DNA of 64,000 nt from an uncultured Acidobacteriaceae bacterium (GTDB taxonomy: Bacteria > Acidobacteriota > Terriglobia > Terriglobales > Acidobacteriaceae): positions 2,911-66,910 of the forward strand of contig CAXTNM010000017.1 in NCBI GenBank assembly GCA_964245715.1, read 5' to 3'. The first letter of the stretch is position 1. Each line of letters opens with the position of its first letter. This document shows, piece after piece, positions 1,289 through 27,409 of the stretch. A program made the translations under genes and the position numbers. The notes beneath the pieces are model-generated. The model was not told the origin of the DNA. It searched no databases and was given only the letters and a program-made list of their open reading frames with translations.

Positions 1289-3085
1289 ATGCCGATTGAT
1301 GTCGTAATGCCGCAGATGGGCGAGAGCATCACCGAAGGAACGCTGACGAAGTGGTTGAAGAAGCCGGGCGAGCGTGTGGAGCGGGACGAGCCGCTGTTTG
1401 AGATCTCGACCGACAAGGTGGATGCCGAGATCCCTTCGCCGGCGGCCGGAGTGTTGGGCGAGCTGAAGATTGAAGAAGGTGCGACGGTCCAGATCAACAC
1501 CGTGGTTTGCACGATCGATGAGAGCGGTTCGGGCACACCGGCTGCTTCGGCGCCGGCGACTTCTGCTGCTCCGGCAGATTTGAAGGAAGATTCTGCGACT
1601 CCCGCGGCGGAGGCTGAGGCGGCCAAGGATGAGGCGATCAACGCTCCTGTGGCGAAGGCTCCGGATGCAGCGAGTGCGCCATCTGCTGCTTCCGGCACTG
1701 AGGTGACGATGCCACAGATGGGTGAATCGATCACCGAAGGAACGATCACCAAGTGGCTGAAGAACGTGGGCGATACGGTGGCACGCGACGAGCCCATCTT
1801 CGAGATTTCAACCGATAAGGTGGATGCGGAGATCCCGTCGCCCGTGGCCGGAACGCTGACCGAGATTCGAGTGCAGGAGGGTTCCACCGTCACTGTCAAC
1901 ACCGTGGTTGCGGTGATTGGCGGCGGGGCGGCCGCTCCAGCGGCGAAGGGCGAGGCACCCGCCGCTTTGGCTACAGCGTCTTCTGCTGCATCGGCACCCG
2001 CTGCAAGTGCTTCCGTGGGCGAGACGCCGCGGTCCTCGCCGCTGGTCCGGAAGATTGCCTCCGAAAACAAGGTCGACCTTCAGCAGGTGCCCGGTACGGG
2101 CGCTTCGGGCCGAATCACCAAGGCAGATATCCTCGGGCATCTGGAGAAGCCTGCCGGTCAACCAGCTGCCGGCCAGCCAGTGACGGGGCAGGCGGCTGCC
2201 GGTCAGCCGACGACTCCGGGCATCGCAGCTGCAGCCCAGGCTCCGCAGCAGAGCCCGGCGCAAACTGCGGCGCAGGTTGGCGCAGCGTCCGGCACGACGG
2301 CGATCCAGGCTTCTGTTTCAGCGGTGCAGTCGGCCCCGGCGACCACTGCTCCGGCGAAGGCCGCGGGCGGCGTGCAGCAGCTTGGCGAACTGGTACCAAT
2401 GACCAAGATGCGCTCGATCATTGCGAAGCGCATGGTCGAATCGAAGGCGACCAGCCCGCACGTGCACACGATCTTCAAGGTCGACATGACGCGCATCGTA
2501 AAGCTGCGTGAGAAGGAAAAGGCCAAGTACGAGCAGCGTAATGGCGTCAAGCTGACCTACATGCCGTTCATCACGCGAGCGGCTGTGGTGGCATTGCGCA
2601 AGCACCCGGTCGTTAATGCGGCGATCCAGGGAGAGGCCATCTTCTATAACCGCAACATTAATATCGGGATCGCGGTGGCGCTCGACTGGGGCCTGATCGT
2701 GCCGGTGGTGAAGCAGTGCGAGGAGAAGAACTTCCTGGGTGTGGCGCGCTCAATTGTGGACCTGGCAGACCGCGCGCGGACCAAGAAGCTGGCTCCGGAC
2801 GAGGTCTCAGGTGGCACGTTCACGCTGACCAACGCGGGCATCTTCGGCGAGCAGTTCGGTACACCCATCATCAACCAGCCGCAGGCGGCAATTCTCGGCA
2901 TCGGCGGCCTGAATAAAGAGGCCGTGGTGCTGACCGACAAGGATGGCCAGGACACGATTGCGATCCGTTCGATTCAGCGGTTTACCCTCGGGTTCGACCA
3001 CCGGATTGTGGATGGTGCGGACGCTGGCAAGTTCATGACCGACTTCAAGACCTACCTCGAGAACTGGTCGGAAGATATCGGGTAG
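1289..3085 (+). CDS. sucB: 2-oxoacid dehydrogenase E2 (dihydrolipoamide acyltransferase, SucB/DlaT type) with two lipoyl domains
   Basis: Two near-identical ISTDKVDAEIPSP lipoyl domains, Ala/Pro linkers, SPLVRKIA E3-binding domain and catalytic FDHRIVDG. Start moved from 1190 to MPIDVVMPQ at 1289. Confidence 0.88.
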   Translation: MPIDVVMPQMGESITEGTLTKWLKKPGERVERDEPLFEISTDKVDAEIPSPAAGVLGELKIEEGATVQINTVVCTIDESGSGTPAASAPATSAAPADLKEDSATPAAEAEAAKDEAINAPVAKAPDAASAPSAASGTEVTMPQMGESITEGTITKWLKNVGDTVARDEPIFEISTDKVDAEIPSPVAGTLTEIRVQEGSTVTVNTVVAVIGGGAAAPAAKGEAPAALATASSAASAPAASASVGETPRSSPLVRKIASENKVDLQQVPGTGASGRITKADILGHLEKPAGQPAAGQPVTGQAAAGQPTTPGIAAAAQAPQQSPAQTAAQVGAASGTTAIQASVSAVQSAPATTAPAKAAGGVQQLGELVPMTKMRSIIAKRMVESKATSPHVHTIFKVDMTRIVKLREKEKAKYEQRNGVKLTYMPFITRAAVVALRKHPVVNAAIQGEAIFYNRNINIGIAVALDWGLIVPVVKQCEEKNFLGVARSIVDLADRARTKKLAPDEVSGGTFTLTNAGIFGEQFGTPIINQPQAAILGIGGLNKEAVVLTDKDGQDTIAIRSIQRFTLGFDHRIVDGADAGKFMTDFKTYLENWSEDIG

Positions 3086-3086
3086 T

Positions 3087-3473
3087 TCAGGCCCCAGCAT
3101 CCTGTGACTGTGAACGGCTCAGCTTCATCGCTGTGCCGTTCTTTTTTGCCGCGATCAGCTGTGAGTAGACGGCGTCGACGTCCTCGCGGGTGCGAAGGAT
3201 CGTGCATTCATTTTCCGCAAGCTGTTGCGGCGTCAGCACGACGAGCCCTCGGCCTGGGCAAAGCTTGAGACAGGGCACCTTCAGGATAGAGGGGGGTTTG
3301 TTCCCGTGTTGCTTGCTGATGCGCTTCAGGAGCTTCTTCAGCGGCGTGATGGATTCGGGATCGCCGTCATGTTTGAGTCGTCGCTGGCACTTGCTGCAGG
3401 CGAGAAGAACGGGTGATTTGAGCGGGAGTCTGCAGGTACGGGGGCCGAGTTCGTCTGAGGTGCGCTTGGACAT
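3087..3473 (-). CDS. Thioredoxin-like (2Fe-2S) ferredoxin-family protein
   Basis: CSKC and VPCLKLCP cysteine pattern; AAGGA ribosome-binding site (RBS) before MSKRTS at 3473. Confidence 0.5.
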   Translation of the reverse strand: MSKRTSDELGPRTCRLPLKSPVLLACSKCQRRLKHDGDPESITPLKKLLKRISKQHGNKPPSILKVPCLKLCPGRGLVVLTPQQLAENECTILRTREDVDAVYSQLIAAKKNGTAMKLSRSQSQDAGA

Positions 3474-6870: not shown

Positions 6871-9258
6871 CTAGCTGCCTGGTTGATGGTTGAGGATGGC
6901 GGCCGAGAAGCGTGAATAGAGCGGCGGCGTGGAGGCGTCGTACATGCATAGGAAGAAGGTCTCGTCGGCGGCGGCGAGGGGAATCGAGAATCCGCGTACA
7001 GGACTGCGCAGGACCAGATCGCCACTCGCACTCGGAGCAGTGAGCGAGCCGAAGCCGCCGTCTCGTCGTCGCACCTCGAAGCCTCCACCCGGGGGCGGTG
7101 CAATGCCCGCGTCGACCGTCAGCGAGGTTGAAGAGGCAGGAGTGATCGTGATCTGCGAAAGATTGGCGAGGACATGAACGGGGAGCGTAGCGCCTGTAAC
7201 AGAGTCGATGAGATCGAGCGCCGCGACCGGGAGGAAGGCGTCGGCTTCGATGGTCTCGGAGAGCTTGAGCCCGAGGCCTTCGGCCCAGTCGTTGGCGAAC
7301 GTGATCCGGTAGGTGAGGGCTTCGGGGCTCGCGTCCTGCTGCGAGACGGTGACGCGGCGCACGATGCAGTTCAGCGTCTGGTTCTGGCTAAGGACGATGA
7401 GCAGATCACCGGGCCAGATGTCCGGGCTGGCAGGGTTCACTGCCTCATACGTACCGCTGAGAGCGGCCGCACGATTCGACGCAAAGCTGAGAATAGCCTG
7501 CGCGGCGGCCTCGCAATCCTGACTCGAGCGGGCGGGCGGTTGGACAACGTGGCCAAGCCAGCGGGAGGTTCCTGCAACGCCGTTCGTCTCTCCGGCTGCC
7601 TCGACGGCCAGGCTTGCGGGGTCGGCGACCCGTGCGATGGCGCGCCCGCGTCCGCGGTAGGAGACCGCGATGGTCTCGCCCGCGGCGGGAACGCGTCCGG
7701 CAAAGAAGGTGATGCGGCCCGTGGTGGAGGAGGTGACGGAACAGTCCGCGCCATCGGAAGCCTTGCCGACCAGGCGCGTCCACTGCGTGCCGGTAGAGCT
7801 TGTGCTGCGAACCCAGCAGGTGCCGCTGCGAGTCAGCGTGAGCGATCCAACGGACCCGGAGAGTGTGAGGCTGTTGATCGGAACGAACGTGACCTGCGCG
7901 GGCGAAAGGGCGATTGAGCCGTCGTAGAGCACGGTGATCGGCGTGTTGGAGGCGGAGGCCTGGTCGCGCGCCTCGAAGACGAGAGAGACCGGCGCCGGGT
8001 TGGTGCCGGAGCCGAACTGGGCCACTGTGGAGCCACGGGGCGGCGATTCGACCAGGGCGTAGAACGATTGCTGGACGCGCAGAAGCTCTGGGCAATGAAG
8101 CCGCAGGCGGAAGGTGTACACGTGGGCGGGAGCGAGGGTAAGCGACGTGCCTACCTCGACGCCGTTGATCATTGGGGTGGCAAGCGTCTGGCCGGCGCTC
8201 TGGCGAATGTTGAAGCCCGCGAAGCAGTTGGCCTGCCGGGTGCTACCGTTGTAAAGCCCGCCGAGGATGCCGGCGGAACCGGCCGTGAAGGTGACGGCAT
8301 CGAATTCGAGGACGAGCGAGCCGCCCACTTCCAGTGGATCCCAAGCGGCGACGGTGGTCTGGCCGTCGAGACCGTTGCCGCCGCTGACCGTGAGGCCCGC
8401 TGACGTGAGGGACAGGTGCCCGCCGGGATCGTTGGTCTGCCACTGCTGCAGGTTGAGGGTGGATTCGGTGAAGGGTTCGGCGATCAGCGTCGCGTGTGCG
8501 GCGTCAGGTGCGTCCGGCTCGCCGAGCAGACCGAAGACTTCGGTGGTGCCGTCGCCGGTGAAGAGCTCCGTCCAGTAGGCGCTCGGTTCGAGAGCGCCGG
8601 TGACGGTGATGTCGTTCGCGAGCTCTTTGAGCGAGGTTGTCCTCAACGCGCCGACGGCGAGCGATCCGTCGCCATCCGAAAACGTGTGTTGTACGAGCGC
8701 CAGACCGGCGAGTCCGATCGTCCCGTTGATCGCGCGATAGCTGCTGTAGGTGGAGTTCGCGAGAAGGCCGGCGTTGCTCGACCAGTTACTTCCCTTCTCC
8801 GGCTCAAAGATGCCGGTGAGGTTGGTGGCGGCGCCCGTAGTCGTCAGGACATTGGGCGCGAGGCGCTGCACGAGCGACGTCATCAGGTTGGAGGTCGACT
8901 CGCCGAGTCCGGTGCCGACGGTCGATCCCCAGGACTGCTTATCAAGCAGCCACTCGTCTGAGACGGCGGAGAGGGCGAGGCGGTAGACCGGCCCGGGACT
9001 CGCCTCGCCGGCGTAGAGTGCCGTGGGTTCGGTAGTCAGATAACCCGTGAATAGCGTGATGCCGGCGGTGGTGCTGGTCACAACGACGCGACCGCGGCGC
9101 ACCGGCGTCGGCAGGATGGAGGCCTCAAGGCAGAGCATACCCCGGAGGGCACTCGGCGCGTTCAACGTCCGGTTGATCTCGAAGGGTTCCGAGTTGTCGA
9201 TGGCGGCGGTGTAATCGATCGGTCCGAGCCCGTCGAGATTGTCGATCGTTAGCTGCAT
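6871..9258 (-). CDS. Putative tail hub / host-specificity protein (795 aa)
   Basis: Beta-rich, Thr/Gly/Ser-rich protein starting MQLTIDNLDG at 9258, overlapping the portal stop. The C-terminal IVRRVTV..YRITF resembles tail-hub beta barrels. The track ORF's extension to 9642 overlaps portal and is rejected. Confidence 0.55.
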   Translation of the reverse strand: MQLTIDNLDGLGPIDYTAAIDNSEPFEINRTLNAPSALRGMLCLEASILPTPVRRGRVVVTSTTAGITLFTGYLTTEPTALYAGEASPGPVYRLALSAVSDEWLLDKQSWGSTVGTGLGESTSNLMTSLVQRLAPNVLTTTGAATNLTGIFEPEKGSNWSSNAGLLANSTYSSYRAINGTIGLAGLALVQHTFSDGDGSLAVGALRTTSLKELANDITVTGALEPSAYWTELFTGDGTTEVFGLLGEPDAPDAAHATLIAEPFTESTLNLQQWQTNDPGGHLSLTSAGLTVSGGNGLDGQTTVAAWDPLEVGGSLVLEFDAVTFTAGSAGILGGLYNGSTRQANCFAGFNIRQSAGQTLATPMINGVEVGTSLTLAPAHVYTFRLRLHCPELLRVQQSFYALVESPPRGSTVAQFGSGTNPAPVSLVFEARDQASASNTPITVLYDGSIALSPAQVTFVPINSLTLSGSVGSLTLTRSGTCWVRSTSSTGTQWTRLVGKASDGADCSVTSSTTGRITFFAGRVPAAGETIAVSYRGRGRAIARVADPASLAVEAAGETNGVAGTSRWLGHVVQPPARSSQDCEAAAQAILSFASNRAAALSGTYEAVNPASPDIWPGDLLIVLSQNQTLNCIVRRVTVSQQDASPEALTYRITFANDWAEGLGLKLSETIEADAFLPVAALDLIDSVTGATLPVHVLANLSQITITPASSTSLTVDAGIAPPPGGGFEVRRRDGGFGSLTAPSASGDLVLRSPVRGFSIPLAAADETFFLCMYDASTPPLYSRFSAAILNHQPGS

Positions 9259-23059: not shown

Positions 23060-23096
23060 AAGGCAAAGGGACGCAAGGCTGATGGGCCTGCGTCCC
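23060..23096 (-). promoter_or_regulatory. Stem-loop plus TTTGCCTT in the capsid leader, overlapping an alternative RBS-sequestering hairpin
   Basis: GGGACGCAGGC...GCCTTGCGTCCC-TTTGCCTT; alternative stem GTCCCTTT/AAAGGGAC (23049-23072) covers the RBS. Confidence 0.5.
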
Positions 23097-24020: not shown

Positions 24021-24656
24021 CTAGTAGAAGCTGGCTTCGAGGCGGCTGACGGGCTTCTTGACGCCGCGGCGAACGCGGAAGCTGGTACCGCGATAGGCTG
24101 CCTTATCGCGCAGCAGGATGGCCGCGCCGGTGAAGGTCGCCTTGGTGAGCTTCCAGATGGATGCGCGCATGTCGGCGACGTGGGCGTCTGCGAGCTCGTA
24201 GCTCATCCCCATGCCACTTGCGGAGCCGGCGCCGAGTGCGGGCTCCATCTCGGGAAAGTCGCGGGCGTAGAGGTAGCCTGCCACCAGCAGCTTCTTATCT
24301 TCGAGCGCTGCGGAGGTGATGATGCCGCACTTCTGGCGTGCGTCGTGCCCGTCCCAGCCGGCCTTGTAGTCAACGGCCATGCCGAGCAAGCTGGGGATGG
24401 CGGCTTCGGCGGCAGCGTGGGTCAGCACGACGCGATGTCCGCGCGCGCCTGAGGGAGCGCGATCGCTGGGCGTGTCGACGAGTGTGAGGCAGCCTTCAAA
24501 GGGGAGCCGGTTGGGATGTCCTGCGACCTCCGGGAAATCGACGGCCATGGCACTCATGGCAAGTGTATGAGCTCGCCGTGCAGAGTTGAGCAAAGACGCC
24601 GGGAGTCGGCAGGTGGATGGGCTTGTGGGCCGGCTCATGGGTTGGTTCCACTCCAT
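24021..24656 (-). CDS. Putative prohead (capsid maturation) protease
   Basis: His in WDGHD and Ser in GMGMSYE resemble the HK97-type protease dyad; first gene of the structural operon; AAAGGAG RBS before MEWNQ at 24656. Confidence 0.55.
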   Translation of the reverse strand: MEWNQPMSRPTSPSTCRLPASLLNSARRAHTLAMSAMAVDFPEVAGHPNRLPFEGCLTLVDTPSDRAPSGARGHRVVLTHAAAEAAIPSLLGMAVDYKAGWDGHDARQKCGIITSAALEDKKLLVAGYLYARDFPEMEPALGAGSASGMGMSYELADAHVADMRASIWKLTKATFTGAAILLRDKAAYRGTSFRVRRGVKKPVSRLEASFY

Positions 24657-24756
24657 GCAAAGGCTCCTTTCGCCGTAGTGAACGGTCGGTGAGACCAGGC
24701 TTGCGCCTGGTCTACGGATTGGGTATGTGGAAGGGGTGCGGGCAATAAGCAGAGAC

Positions 24757-24796
24757 AAAAAACGGGAGCGGCACCGTGTGTGGCGCCTGCCCCCGT
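24757..24796 (-). terminator. Rho-independent terminator between the regulator pair and the structural operon
   Basis: Minus strand ACGGGGGCAGGCGCC-acacac-GGTGCCGCTCCCGT-TTTTT; ~14-bp stem with one bulge and a U tail. Confidence 0.7.
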
Positions 24797-24939
24797 CTCT
24801 CACTTTTACTTATATTAATAGAATAGCAGTTCGAACCGGGTAGATAGGACAATTATTTTTTCATTGTAAGTTGTTCATTCGTAACGGCATAGCGGAAGGA
24901 TGGGGAGGATGACCCCTTGACAAGGTTTTCCACAGGTGC

Positions 24940-25491
24940 TTAGTCCTTGAGGGTATTCTCCATTTGCAGTTCAAGCAGTTTTCCCTTGATCAGCATGGAA
25001 GTGAGTTGATCGAGAGCGTCCGCATACCGTCGCGATACTGTCTTGTGGCTGATCCCGAGCATGGCCGCTGTCTCACTGTGGCTGTAGCCCTGAAGCGCGA
25101 CGCGACGCACCAGGTGCTGGAGCCCAGGTGTGAGACGCCCAAGGCAGTTGCCGACATCATGAACGAAGATCAAGGCATCGTCAAAACCCCGCACCGTGCA
25201 GTGACTGACTTTGCCACGGAAGAGCTCACGACCCATCAGCGAAGGAACGCGACCGGCCTCAAGCGAAAGCCTGAGGTAACGCTGCAGCATGGCTTCGGTG
25301 TACTTGCGATAGAAGGCCAGTTCCGGCTTTGGTGCCGGCGAGGCGGCGAGCGGCTGAGCCTCTGCCGATACGAGTCGAAGGCAGTGCGGACCCTTGCGGC
25401 CGGGCGGCGTGGTGGAGAGGCGCTGACCGGAGGCAAGACTGGCGTCGGCGGTTGCCCAGACGCGCGGGAGAATGACCAGGGCCGCGCTCAT
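24940..25491 (-). CDS. Sigma-70 region-4-like HTH regulator (phage late-activator type)
   Basis: C-terminal LQHLVRRVALQGYSHSETAAMLGISHKTVSRRYADA matches a region-4 helix-turn-helix; no recognisable region 2; ATGA overlap with the upstream gene. Confidence 0.7.
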   Translation of the reverse strand: MSAALVILPRVWATADASLASGQRLSTTPPGRKGPHCLRLVSAEAQPLAASPAPKPELAFYRKYTEAMLQRYLRLSLEAGRVPSLMGRELFRGKVSHCTVRGFDDALIFVHDVGNCLGRLTPGLQHLVRRVALQGYSHSETAAMLGISHKTVSRRYADALDQLTSMLIKGKLLELQMENTLKD

Positions 25492-25697
25492 CGGGCACCT
25501 CCGACGGTTTGGGTGGAGCGGGTAAGAAGGATGGGTCGGTGCCTGGCCGTACGCGCATTACGCCGCAGTCCGCGAGCTGCGGGAAATTCGGCAAGCAGGG
25601 GGGCGCAGCGACGGCAGTAGACTTTTTCCGCAATCGTGCGGAGCCAGAGAGCTCCGCATCCTTCACAAACTTTGAGATCGACAGTCAAGCTAATCAT
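25488..25697 (-). CDS. Small zinc-ribbon protein (69 aa)
   Basis: CEGC-x13-CRRC, basic tail, GGAG RBS before MISLT, coupled to the HTH gene. Confidence 0.65.
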   Translation of the reverse strand: MISLTVDLKVCEGCGALWLRTIAEKVYCRRCAPLLAEFPAARGLRRNARTARHRPILLTRSTQTVGGAR

Positions 25698-25988
25698 GAT
25701 GTCTCCAAGGCAAGGTTCCCCCCGGCGAGCTCCAGGTGAATCCGGGTGTGGAAAGGGCTCGCTCAGGCTGCTGTGAGGTGCGGGACTGCGAAGCTCAGGA
25801 AGGTCCTTCCATCCTGAGTGCTGCACAGCGGCACCACTTTTCTATACGGTTCTCGGCGTGGATCCTCGTACCCATGCGCCATCTCTCTCGTGCTTCGAGC
25901 ATGCTACGTGCCAGACCTTTAGGGGACGTGCCTTCCTGCTGGTCCCATCGTGCTGGCTGGTAAACAATCTCATCGGGAAAGTTTCTAA

Positions 25989-26017
25989 GTGATATCGCCG
26001 CTGCGGGAGCATGTCAA
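25989..26017 (-). promoter_or_regulatory. Putative sigma70 promoter of the regulator pair
   Basis: TTGACA (26017-26012), 17-nt spacer, TATCAC (25994-25989), in an AT-rich spacer. Confidence 0.55.
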
Positions 26018-26179
26018 TACACCTTTTTCAAGAGCTTCCCGAAATGAATAACCCAAGGTTTATGTATGTGTTAGGGCTTAAAATGGTGCAAATTAGACAG
26101 GTTTTCCGCAGAATCCTCACGTAGAATAAGAGCTCGCCTTTTATTCGCCACGGTTCTTGTGCTCTTGTAAACTGCAAGG

Positions 26180-27409
26180 ATGGTCTCTCAGCTATACGCT
26201 AAGTGGATGTTTTCATGGGAGACAGCGCTCACTACCCGCGACACCAACCGGATCGTTCGACCGCTGGAATGGGGTGCGGAGTGGTTGGGTGGCTTTGGTG
26301 AGTCGAATCGGGAAGTCTCCGCCAAGAATCTTCCTGAGATGGCTGCGCTCAGTGAAGAGATTGCGACCCGCTCCGATGATTTTTTTGGCTATGTGACGCC
26401 AAGCGACTTCCGCATGGAGCAGCGCTATCCGCAACTCTATCCAACCAACGTCAGGCCCGAAACGCTTGCCCAGGATGCCGAGTGGAAGCGGAAGGCCGCC
26501 GCGGGCGAGATTGAGCCGGTGCCGTTCCTCCGGTTTACGTCTCCGGTCCCAAGTCAGTATCCGGAAAATGACCTGGTCAATGCGCGCTGGTTTCCGGCAA
26601 GCGCGGAGCAGGAAGAGAAGTTTCGCAAGGCGGGCAAGCCGCGACAGGCGATGGTCGTGATGCCCCAGTGGAATGCCGATGCGTTCTCGCACAACGCGCT
26701 CTGCCAGATCTTCAACCGGTTCGGGATCAGCTGCCTGCGGCTGTCGAAGCCCTATCACGATACGAGGAGACCAGCGGAGCTCGAACGTTCGGACTATGCG
26801 GTGTCGTCGAATATCGGCCGCACGATCGCGGCGTGCAGGCAGGCAGTGGTGGATATCCGCTCCTGCCTGGATTGGCTGGAGACCGAGGGCTATGAGCAGT
26901 TCGGCGTGCTGGGAACGAGCCTGGGGTCCTGCTATGCGTTTATCGCGGCGGCGCACGATCCGCGGTTGCAGGTCTGCGCGTTCAATCACGCCTCCACATC
27001 CTTTGGGGACGTGGTCTGGACGGGTCAGAGTACGCGCCACGTGCGTGAGGCATTTGAGCAAGCGGGGTTGAACCAGGACGAGGTAAGGCAGTTATTTCGT
27101 GCGATCAGTCCGATTGCCTATATGGACCGGTTTGCGAGCACCCGCACCCGCAGGAGCCTGGTTGTCCATGCAAAGTACGACCTTACCTTTATCGAGGAGT
27201 TCTCGCTCGACGTGCTCAAGAGCTTCGACGCGTACGGCGTGGACTATGTCTCGAGAGTGCTGCCGTGCGGGCACTACACGACCGGTGAGACGCCCTATAA
27301 GTACATTGATGCGTGGTATCTTTCGAGCTTCATCCATAAGGCCTTCAAGGATCTGGCGTTTGCCCGCATCGCGGAGAAGGCGGAAGCACGAGAGCTGGTA
27401 TCCCGGTAG
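26180..27409 (+). CDS. Alpha/beta hydrolase (ABHD18/DUF2048-like)
   Basis: Nucleophile elbow GTSLG and C-terminal CGHY histidine. Confidence 0.75.
   Translation: MVSQLYAKWMFSWETALTTRDTNRIVRPLEWGAEWLGGFGESNREVSAKNLPEMAALSEEIATRSDDFFGYVTPSDFRMEQRYPQLYPTNVRPETLAQDAEWKRKAAAGEIEPVPFLRFTSPVPSQYPENDLVNARWFPASAEQEEKFRKAGKPRQAMVVMPQWNADAFSHNALCQIFNRFGISCLRLSKPYHDTRRPAELERSDYAVSSNIGRTIAACRQAVVDIRSCLDWLETEGYEQFGVLGTSLGSCYAFIAAAHDPRLQVCAFNHASTSFGDVVWTGQSTRHVREAFEQAGLNQDEVRQLFRAISPIAYMDRFASTRTRRSLVVHAKYDLTFIEEFSLDVLKSFDAYGVDYVSRVLPCGHYTTGETPYKYIDAWYLSSFIHKAFKDLAFARIAEKAEARELVSR

Follow-up and report, generated by a model that had tools for sequence, protein, structure and literature searches.

The 64,000-nt stretch of DNA from an uncultured Acidobacteriaceae bacterium analysed here (the window, to which all coordinates refer) carries on its minus strand a two-gene regulator operon encoding a small zinc-ribbon protein, ZnR, and a protein with a sigma-70 region-4 helix-turn-helix (HTH), sig4, followed on the same strand by a cluster of phage-like structural genes. 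The operon starts at a promoter-like site (25989–26017, minus strand, as are all features of the operon), read directly from the sequence, in which TTGACA (26017–26012) is separated by 17 nt from TATCAC (25994–25989). An automated promoter scan misses this site, the -10 hexamer of which ends in C and lacks the final T. In 15 relatives, which share the arrangement of the window although their sig4 proteins are just 47–74% identical, the TTGAC of the -35 hexamer is invariant, the -10 hexamer reads TATAAC and the spacing of 17 nt is kept. Downstream follow a 5′ leader of ~287 nt (25698–25984, based on RNAalifold and conservation), ZnR (25488–25697, 69 aa) and sig4 (24940–25491, 183 aa). The Shine-Dalgarno (SD) sequence of ZnR is GGAGA at 25706–25702, with the ATG 5 nt further on, at 25697. 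ZnR is present upstream of sig4 in 117 of the 121 loci compared, and in 112 of those 117 the two genes are joined by a four-base stop/start overlap, ATGA or GTGA; moreover, the last codons of ZnR, GGAGGTG (conserved C-terminal GGxx), serve also as the SD sequence of sig4. This anatomy, its conservation and the coupling of the two genes were observed directly. The initial annotation of this DNA had described the TTGACA-17-TATCAC promoter, a leader of ~290 nt with a hairpin, a CxxC-x13-CxxC protein and an ATGA overlap, all of which were borne out in position and on the minus strand.

ZnR, identified as an open reading frame (ORF) and by comparison of loci, contains a Cys4 zinc ribbon, CEGC-x13-CRRC. 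The Cys4 core spans 21–23 residues with invariant K, E, G, LW, R and Y, and is followed by an FPAPR motif and a tail rich in Arg and Lys; the invariant residues are K9, C11, E12, C14, G15, L17, W18, R20, Y27, C28, C31 and P39. None of its 254 homologs is named. No Pfam or NCBIfam family was matched, the sole Pfam match at E ≤ 1 being a sub-threshold FYVE (E 0.042), and the Ogr_Delta model, which represents the Ogr/Delta zinc-finger late activators, was not matched in Pfam. The AlphaFold2 (AF2) model of ZnR was too weak (pLDDT 60) and gave no significant fold match. At the level of motifs, the protein is devoid of the HxxxCxxC helical zinc-binding anti-sigma (ZAS; zf-HC2) domain, and its CxxC-x13-CxxC segment is predicted to form short beta strands. 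As a side observation, an in-frame TAG in ZnR replaces the conserved Glu of the CERC motif in one capsid-less genome (L034), and no ZnR was found upstream of sig4 at locus L038; judged from these sequences, both cases possibly represent decay of the module where the head genes are gone.

The layout of sig4, derived from Pfam, AF2 and Foldseek, comprises a region-4 HTH (residues ~100–170), a conserved N-terminal core (55–110) and short conserved motifs in a predicted disordered part. Pfam returned Sigma70_r4 (3e-8, residues 116–163) and Sigma70_r4_2 (3.9e-7) and nothing besides region 4, in agreement with the earlier statement that this is the only recognisable domain of the protein. NCBIfam TIGR02937 scored 31.5 bits against a cutoff of 42.9 bits, matching only profile positions 107–164 of 165, that is, region 4. 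In the AF2 model residues 100–170 form a four-helix region-4 domain with pLDDT >93, with more helices at 62–77 and 86–90, and Foldseek aligned the model with region 4 of the extracytoplasmic function (ECF) sigma factors SigL, SigD and SigE (TM 0.8–0.94, rmsd 1–2.8). No sigma region 2 was found by Foldseek in the N-terminal 110 residues, and a profile search of the PDB returned region 4 only; because region 2 is missing, sig4 is not a complete sigma factor. The strongly conserved GRVPSLLGRELFRG and the N-terminal motifs ILPRVWATA and RKGPHxLRLV were modelled with low confidence, and in the model they look like segments that would fold on a partner.

In the window the operon is followed on the same strand by protease-like, scaffold, capsid, neck and tail, fibre, large terminase, DUF3037, portal and hub genes, and the cluster has purE/purK at one flank and, at the opposite one, genes for an ABHD18-like hydrolase and SHMT. 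The usual order among relatives is ZnR, sig4, fibre, variable region, terL, kinase-like, DUF3037, portal, protease, scaffold, capsid, neck and tail, hub, purE/purK; in the lineage of the window it is rearranged, with the protease directly after sig4. The sig4 gene is single-copy in 100 of 121 genera of Acidobacteriaceae and was not found in ~140 genomes from other Acidobacteriota families, and the capsid gene is single-copy in 80 of 120 genera, with identities of 68–85%. Co-occurrence of the pair with the cluster in other genomes, proposed earlier as a test of a regulatory link, holds: both sig4 and the capsid gene were counted in 78 cases, the capsid gene only in 3, sig4 only in 22 and neither in 18 (Fisher p 6e-8, shared ancestry ignored). 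Furthermore, the two genes lie 2–25 kb apart in ~50 genomes with both on one contig (counted from position lists), and sig4 stands at the cluster head, on the same strand, in 24 of 24 capsid-bearing 20-kb loci inspected, so that co-location with the cluster is likewise a direct observation. Separately, in G100, G115 and G118 sig4 and the capsid gene are on separate contigs though the assemblies are fairly contiguous, and in G081 they lie 25 kb apart in opposite orientation; in these four genomes the switch and the head genes may have become separated.

The predicted promoter-terminator unit downstream of sig4

Fold and conservation together define a promoter-like element followed by an intrinsic terminator at 24755–24859 on the minus strand, 81–188 nt past the sig4 stop. 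The unit consists of an A-tract, TTGTCC (24852–24847), a 21-nt gap, TGCTATTCT (24828–24820), ~20 purine-rich nt, a hairpin (24797–24763) and a U-tract. Its consensus reads A-tract, TTGnCn, 21 nt, the near-invariant CTGCTATTCT (an extended -10-like TGnTATTCT), the purine-rich AAGTAAGTAAGAAA and a strong hairpin, which folds as a long G+C-rich stem and is followed by U6. Across 35 sequences, CTGCTATTCT, the CGGGAG/CUCCCG base of the stem and GUUUU (GUUUU.GUUUU) are near-invariant. The unit is conserved in 75 of the 121 loci, always straight after sig4 and on the same strand, starting 5–300 nt past the sig4 stop, and this genome holds one strong copy of it. The intrinsic terminator is predicted ~20 nt past the -10-like element and, because this spacing is fixed in the 75 loci, transcripts initiated at the unit promoter would meet the terminator ~20 nt on; read-through from sig4 would run into it too. 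A search of Rfam over 24300–25000 gave two chance-level matches only.

The first structural gene, encoding the protease-like protein (24021–24557, minus strand; tblastn and DNA conservation), probably starts at ATG 24557 (MSAMAVDF) rather than at 24656 or 24803, because homology in other genera begins there, and ~195 nt past the terminator would therefore be untranslated. In other genera the part matched by tblastn starts at about residues 28–34 of the longer ORF, and DNA conservation resumes ~377 nt past the sig4 stop. Further into the cluster, the spaces between structural genes contain G+C-rich hairpins with UUUGCCUU behind them, at 23096–23068, 22047–22020 and 14220–14194, flanking the capsid gene on both sides and preceding terL. 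Judged by their sequence, these could be weak terminators or RNA-stabilising elements, and they bear on an antitermination model.

Elsewhere in the same genome (G000), ~8 sites share the architecture of the unit, with TTGnCn..ACCC..AACCTGCTAnnCT, ~25 purine-rich nt and a hairpin with a short U-tract, an arrangement expected by chance about zero times. These look-alike sites (loci L123–L127) are C45:36979, C61:1293, C64:15069, C125:4655, C36:7487, C94:3665, C98 and C2; some of them lie 220–340 nt upstream of secreted glycosidase-like or membrane proteins, and a search of Rfam with five of them returned nothing meaningful. The exact look-alike 13-mer occurs 0–1 times in same-genus genomes, and the sites could be a regulon or a repeat family peculiar to this genome. 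The notion of the unit motif as a family-wide promoter class was rejected, as AACCTGCTATYCT occurs four times here, 0–1 times in 12 same-genus genomes and not at all in 8 of the same order.

The leader RNA

The leaders of the window and the 15 relatives (273–307 nt in the latter) were aligned, and the 16 sequences were folded with RNAalifold, which returned five helices with 32 pairs, 11 of them with compensatory changes. Standard pairing was found in 93.8% of the pair cells as compared with 35–54% in slid-partner controls, and the observed number of covarying pairs was reached by 1 of 500 shuffles. On the minus strand, helix H1 joins 25980–25976 to 25720–25716, so that the 5′ UUUCC pairs with the GGGGA just before the SD sequence; the H2/H3 stem-loop (25957–25910) contains GGGAC/GUCCC, covarying to GGGAU/AUCCC; H4 (25835–25777) has an outer stem GUGC/GCAC, covarying to GCGC/GCGC and GUAC/GUAC; and H5 (25767–25721) is built of CCUGAGCGAGCC/GGCUCGC..CGGGG with a conserved loop UCCGACC..GAAAAAU. 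The hairpin CTCAGGA (25818–25812)/TCCTGAG (25800–25794), at 25794–25818, is the apical part of the conserved, ~60-nt H4 stem-loop, a domain that forms an extended hairpin in all 16 sequences despite differing letters, e.g. CCGGAACC/GGTTCCGG. Fifty-two loci have the 3′ block of the leader, at -80 to -1, and 17 have the 5′ block; the element occurs once in this genome. Rfam 15 gave no match at E ≤ 10 over 24800–26400, and the leader of the window contains no U-tract terminator. It would constitute a new structured RNA motif, full in at least 17 genomes and with its 3′ half in 52.

A leader-encoded peptide was considered and rejected, because the frames are inconsistently open (upstream of ZnR its frame stays open in 11 of 16 sequences and is closed in 5, with no conserved start) and the conserved columns covary as RNA; the absence of a convincing ORF noted earlier thus extends to the absence of any conserved ORF among the 16 sequences. 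We favour control of translation or RNA stability as the likely role of the leader, because H1 closes the structure beside the SD sequence. It had further been suggested that the leader takes host signals. The conserved and structured nature of the leader makes such sensing plausible.

A sister clade (ZnR motif CERC; L015, L018–L033 and L036–L041) has a different leader, composed of a promoter, a conserved ORF and a hairpin opposed to a terminator. The ORF, of ~70 aa, carries a conserved FVEFRRKVRSAEVLS..VVVQNGRVLKSGYEEGYFRQ, has no family match and is not present in the window or its genome. After the ORF come a AACTAAATA motif, a hairpin CAGGTCATCGTAAGAGAAACGAGCCCTG and, immediately 5′ of ZnR, an intrinsic terminator GCCCTGTG..CACAGGGCTTTTTT with which the hairpin competes. 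By its sequence this arrangement looks like an attenuator, in which termination would visibly gate the expression of ZnR-sig4.

Phage ancestry and the candidate repressor

A tblastn search of 50,697 phage records with sig4 gave no match. Among the 2.9 million contigs of IMG/VR, three contain a sig4 relative; two of these are the same chromosomal cluster and one, the phage-like contig L130, is informative. On it the sig4 core has a homolog of 133 aa (44% identity, E 3e-31), the gene of which overlaps terS (Terminase_2) and lies directly 5′ of it, with terL next (L130:9995–13062). The position directly before terS-terL is the classical place of a late-gene regulator. The phage homolog has no N-terminal extension, whereas chromosomal sig4 adds ~55 residues; because extension and ZnR are both missing from L130, the N-terminal extension, ZnR, the leader and the terminator unit are features of the chromosomal form. 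The comparison shows the sig4 core to be of phage ancestry, and ZnR-sig4 is very probably the dedicated, phage-derived regulator of the cluster. The same contig also carries a second small gene for a GerE/region-4-like HTH at 8897–9229, ~770 nt upstream of the sig4-core homolog.

As the initial annotation had remarked, no repressor is present: no repressor gene stands beside the pair in the window, and no homolog of the type found in relatives occurs in the assembly (94.7% complete). This is a lineage-specific condition, however, since 63 of 121 relatives have, as their divergent neighbour upstream, a gene for a ~238-aa Cro/C1-type HTH protein (Pfam HTH_26, E 3.5e-4, just under the cutoff) with a C-terminal domain matching no family. 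At L108, for example, this gene (2410–3126, minus strand) starts ~540 nt upstream of ZnR, and in the group to which the window belongs (18 loci) an ABHD18-like gene occupies its position. Based on its place and domain type, the divergent Cro/C1-type gene is a candidate repressor of the switch.

The intergenic region that the operon shares with the divergent ABHD18-like gene (26018–26179) contains a conserved direct repeat, GCGAA-N6-GCGAA, an inverted repeat, CTAAC..GTTAG, and CCATTTTAA, in which the ABHD18-like gene would have its -10 hexamer, TAAAAT. These conserved elements are possible candidates for host-regulator sites.

Proposed mode of action and comparison with known systems

The regulator operon would be transcribed from its sigma-70-type promoter, with the folded leader setting the output of ZnR and sig4. 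The two proteins, made in equal amounts, would act on the promoter-plus-terminator unit ~80 nt past sig4, where sig4 would contact DNA and RNA polymerase through its region-4-like domain, and sig4 and the zinc ribbon would let polymerase pass the promoter-proximal terminator and the G+C-rich intra-operon hairpins. This would amount to a Q/GafZ-like antitermination step, possibly with activation of initiation in addition. That the unit is the target, that ZnR and sig4 form a protein complex and that the step is one of antitermination are what we infer. The initial annotation had taken the pair for the functional counterpart of GafA, the activator of RcGTA, a gene transfer agent (GTA). Its co-occurrence with the cluster, its place at the cluster head and the region-4 fold sustain that comparison, whereas the single HTH, the promoter-terminator unit, which suggests a GafYZ/Q type, and the 22 genera without a capsid gene do not fit it. 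Termination-antitermination of the GafYZ/Q type is favoured over a plain GafA-type activator because the promoter-plus-terminator unit is conserved right after sig4, and by analogy antitermination is the best-fitting mechanism, which we hold tentatively. For the composite reading, a translationally coupled pair, derived from a phage late-gene regulator, that acts as a switch dedicated to a phage-like cluster of vertical inheritance and works by Q/GafZ-like antitermination, we judge the case to be evenly balanced.

Several points weigh against this composite reading. The downstream promoter is a prediction, in which TTGnCn and the -10-like TATTCT are spaced by 21 nt instead of 17. A sigma-dependent pause element could not be clearly made out: the window has TAATAT/TATAAG in the AAGTAAGTAAGAAA segment, and the relatives contain no consistent TAnnnT hexamer. 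Neither sig4 nor ZnR has a Q-family match in Pfam, PHROG or PDB sequences, nor did Q, GafZ or AlpA emerge from the sequence and fold comparisons, the best fold matches being ECF sigma region 4. The phage homolog in L130 lacks ZnR and overlaps terS, which suits a plain activator, and 22 genera retain sig4 without a capsid gene. Finally, the terminator may do no more than close the regulator operon. Alternatively, the unit could still be the gene of a small RNA, although antisense targets in the genome did not exceed chance.

The main rival explanation is that the pair works as a late-gene activator of a plain kind or as a sigma-like initiation factor (RinA/ArpU/GafA type), with sig4, assisted by ZnR, recruiting polymerase to the promoter behind sig4 or to others in the cluster, and the hairpin serving just to end the regulator operon; we consider this possible, if rather doubtful. 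It agrees with the likeness of the region-4 fold to ECF sigma region 4, with weak Foldseek matches of sig4 in BFVD to small phage region-4 proteins and a DUF1492 protein (E 3e-3 to 6e-2), and with L130, where the homolog stands directly before terS with no terminator, and the TTGnCn at its non-standard distance could be an activator site. Set against this, sig4 has no sigma region 2 and hence is no complete sigma factor, none of the RinA, ArpU and DUF1492 models matched it among Pfam hits at E ≤ 0.01 and NCBIfam hits at E ≤ 1, and the fixed element-terminator spacing in 75 loci places a terminator ~20 nt into the transcripts.

It is unlikely that ZnR instead inhibits sig4 in an anti-sigma-like manner, perhaps sensing redox state or zinc, such that 1:1 synthesis silences sig4 until ZnR is inactivated. 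The strict translational coupling suggests a complex, the four invariant cysteines could respond to oxidation, and a solved complex of a zinc-binding anti-sigma factor with sigma region 4 (3hug) is among the Foldseek matches of sig4. However, CxxC-x13-CxxC is a beta-ribbon rather than an HxxxCxxC helical ZAS, with no zf-HC2 match, and the conserved basic tail of ZnR looks nucleic-acid-binding. The ZnR-first order is also unusual, since in sigma/anti-sigma operons the anti-sigma gene is rarely first. Equally improbable is that the pair mainly controls something besides particle production, e.g. the exported fibre-like protein, with the proximity of the head genes being historical, for although the 22 capsid-less genera keep sig4, capsid-less genomes retain ZnR-sig4 with a homolog of the fibre N-terminus 1.5–2 kb downstream and the fibre gene is the first after sig4 in 67 of 121 loci, the head genes, where present, lie behind the pair on the same strand and few promoter-like sites come in between, the sig4 core derives from a phage gene placed before terS, and control of the fibre is compatible with a cluster switch, so that both can hold together.

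Acidobacteriaceae belong to the most abundant bacteria of soil and, to our knowledge, almost nothing is known of their gene regulation and DNA exchange. The module falls into clearly separable parts, namely the RNA leader, the two small proteins and a single proposed target, the promoter-terminator unit, and inducing two small genes should suffice to force expression. If antitermination is true, control by termination/antitermination would be a point of convergence of all three GTA lineages that were domesticated independently, and the combination of HTH and zinc ribbon in Q-lambda would gain a two-subunit counterpart. In its most extended form the proposal is speculative, and we lean against asserting it: Acidobacteriaceae may harbour a third, independently domesticated GTA-like element with a "split Q" switch, a region-4-like HTH protein and a zinc ribbon on two translationally coupled polypeptides that would load onto RNA polymerase at a conserved promoter, override of a terminator ~20 nt downstream and gating by a structured ~290-nt sensor-leader of a kind not described before (in the sister clade, by a small ORF and an attenuator).

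Among known regulators, ECF sigma factors with their anti-sigma factors resemble ZnR-sig4 in the alignable region 4 and in the two-gene operon with a zinc-binding partner, but differ in that here region 2 is absent, the family score is below the cutoff, the partner has no ZAS domain and the two genes stand in the opposite order. The RinA, ArpU and DUF1492 late activators share with sig4 a similar size, a region-4-like HTH and, as seen in L130, the place directly before terS, to which the chromosomal form adds the ~55-residue N-terminal extension, ZnR, the structured leader and the terminator unit. GafA of RcGTA is, as sig4 would be, a dedicated activator of a GTA-like cluster, with a C-terminal part resembling sigma region 4 (PMC11150451; bioRxiv 10.1101/2024.11.20.624540), yet it is larger and described as multi-domain, whereas sig4 contains a single HTH and is paired with a zinc ribbon on another polypeptide. 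Regulation through CtrA or quorum sensing belongs to the GafA side of the comparison and is not applicable or known for ZnR-sig4. Region-4-like features are common to Q21, BrrG, GafZ and GafA (bioRxiv 10.1101/2024.11.20.624540).

The lambdoid Q proteins (Q-lambda, Q21) and BrrG of the Bartonella GTA are encoded just upstream of a late promoter and terminator, as sig4 is of its predicted unit, and the layout of the unit is like that of lambdoid PR′-tR′ and of the GTA promoters controlled by GafZ and BrrG (PMC11150451; bioRxiv 10.1101/2024.11.20.624540), as an analogy rather than as evidence of homology. Q-lambda combines an HTH body, a zinc ribbon touching the zinc-binding domain of polymerase and a disordered N-terminus that forms a nozzle (PMC9388147); here, by contrast, HTH and zinc ribbon are on two separate polypeptides, with no Q-family match in Pfam or the PDB. 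GafY and GafZ of the Caulobacter crescentus GTA (PMC11150451, PMC9632790) resemble ZnR-sig4 as a two-gene operon of small regulators belonging to a vertically inherited phage-like cluster. Likened by description, both systems have one partner with a sigma-like HTH, a long untranslated leader and terminators in need of bypass, and GafZ, with its sigma-like HTH, antiterminates the GTA cluster (PMC11150451). The differences are that the host phylum is another, that the terminator here lies ~20 nt past the promoter-like element, that no IHF or GafY-like second DNA binder was identified at ZnR-sig4, and that GafZ is not described with a zinc ribbon (the word 'zinc' is absent from PMC11150451). A further point of likeness is that in the GafYZ circuit the repressor RogA acts upstream, as the divergent Cro/C1-type gene of 63 relatives of the window may do.

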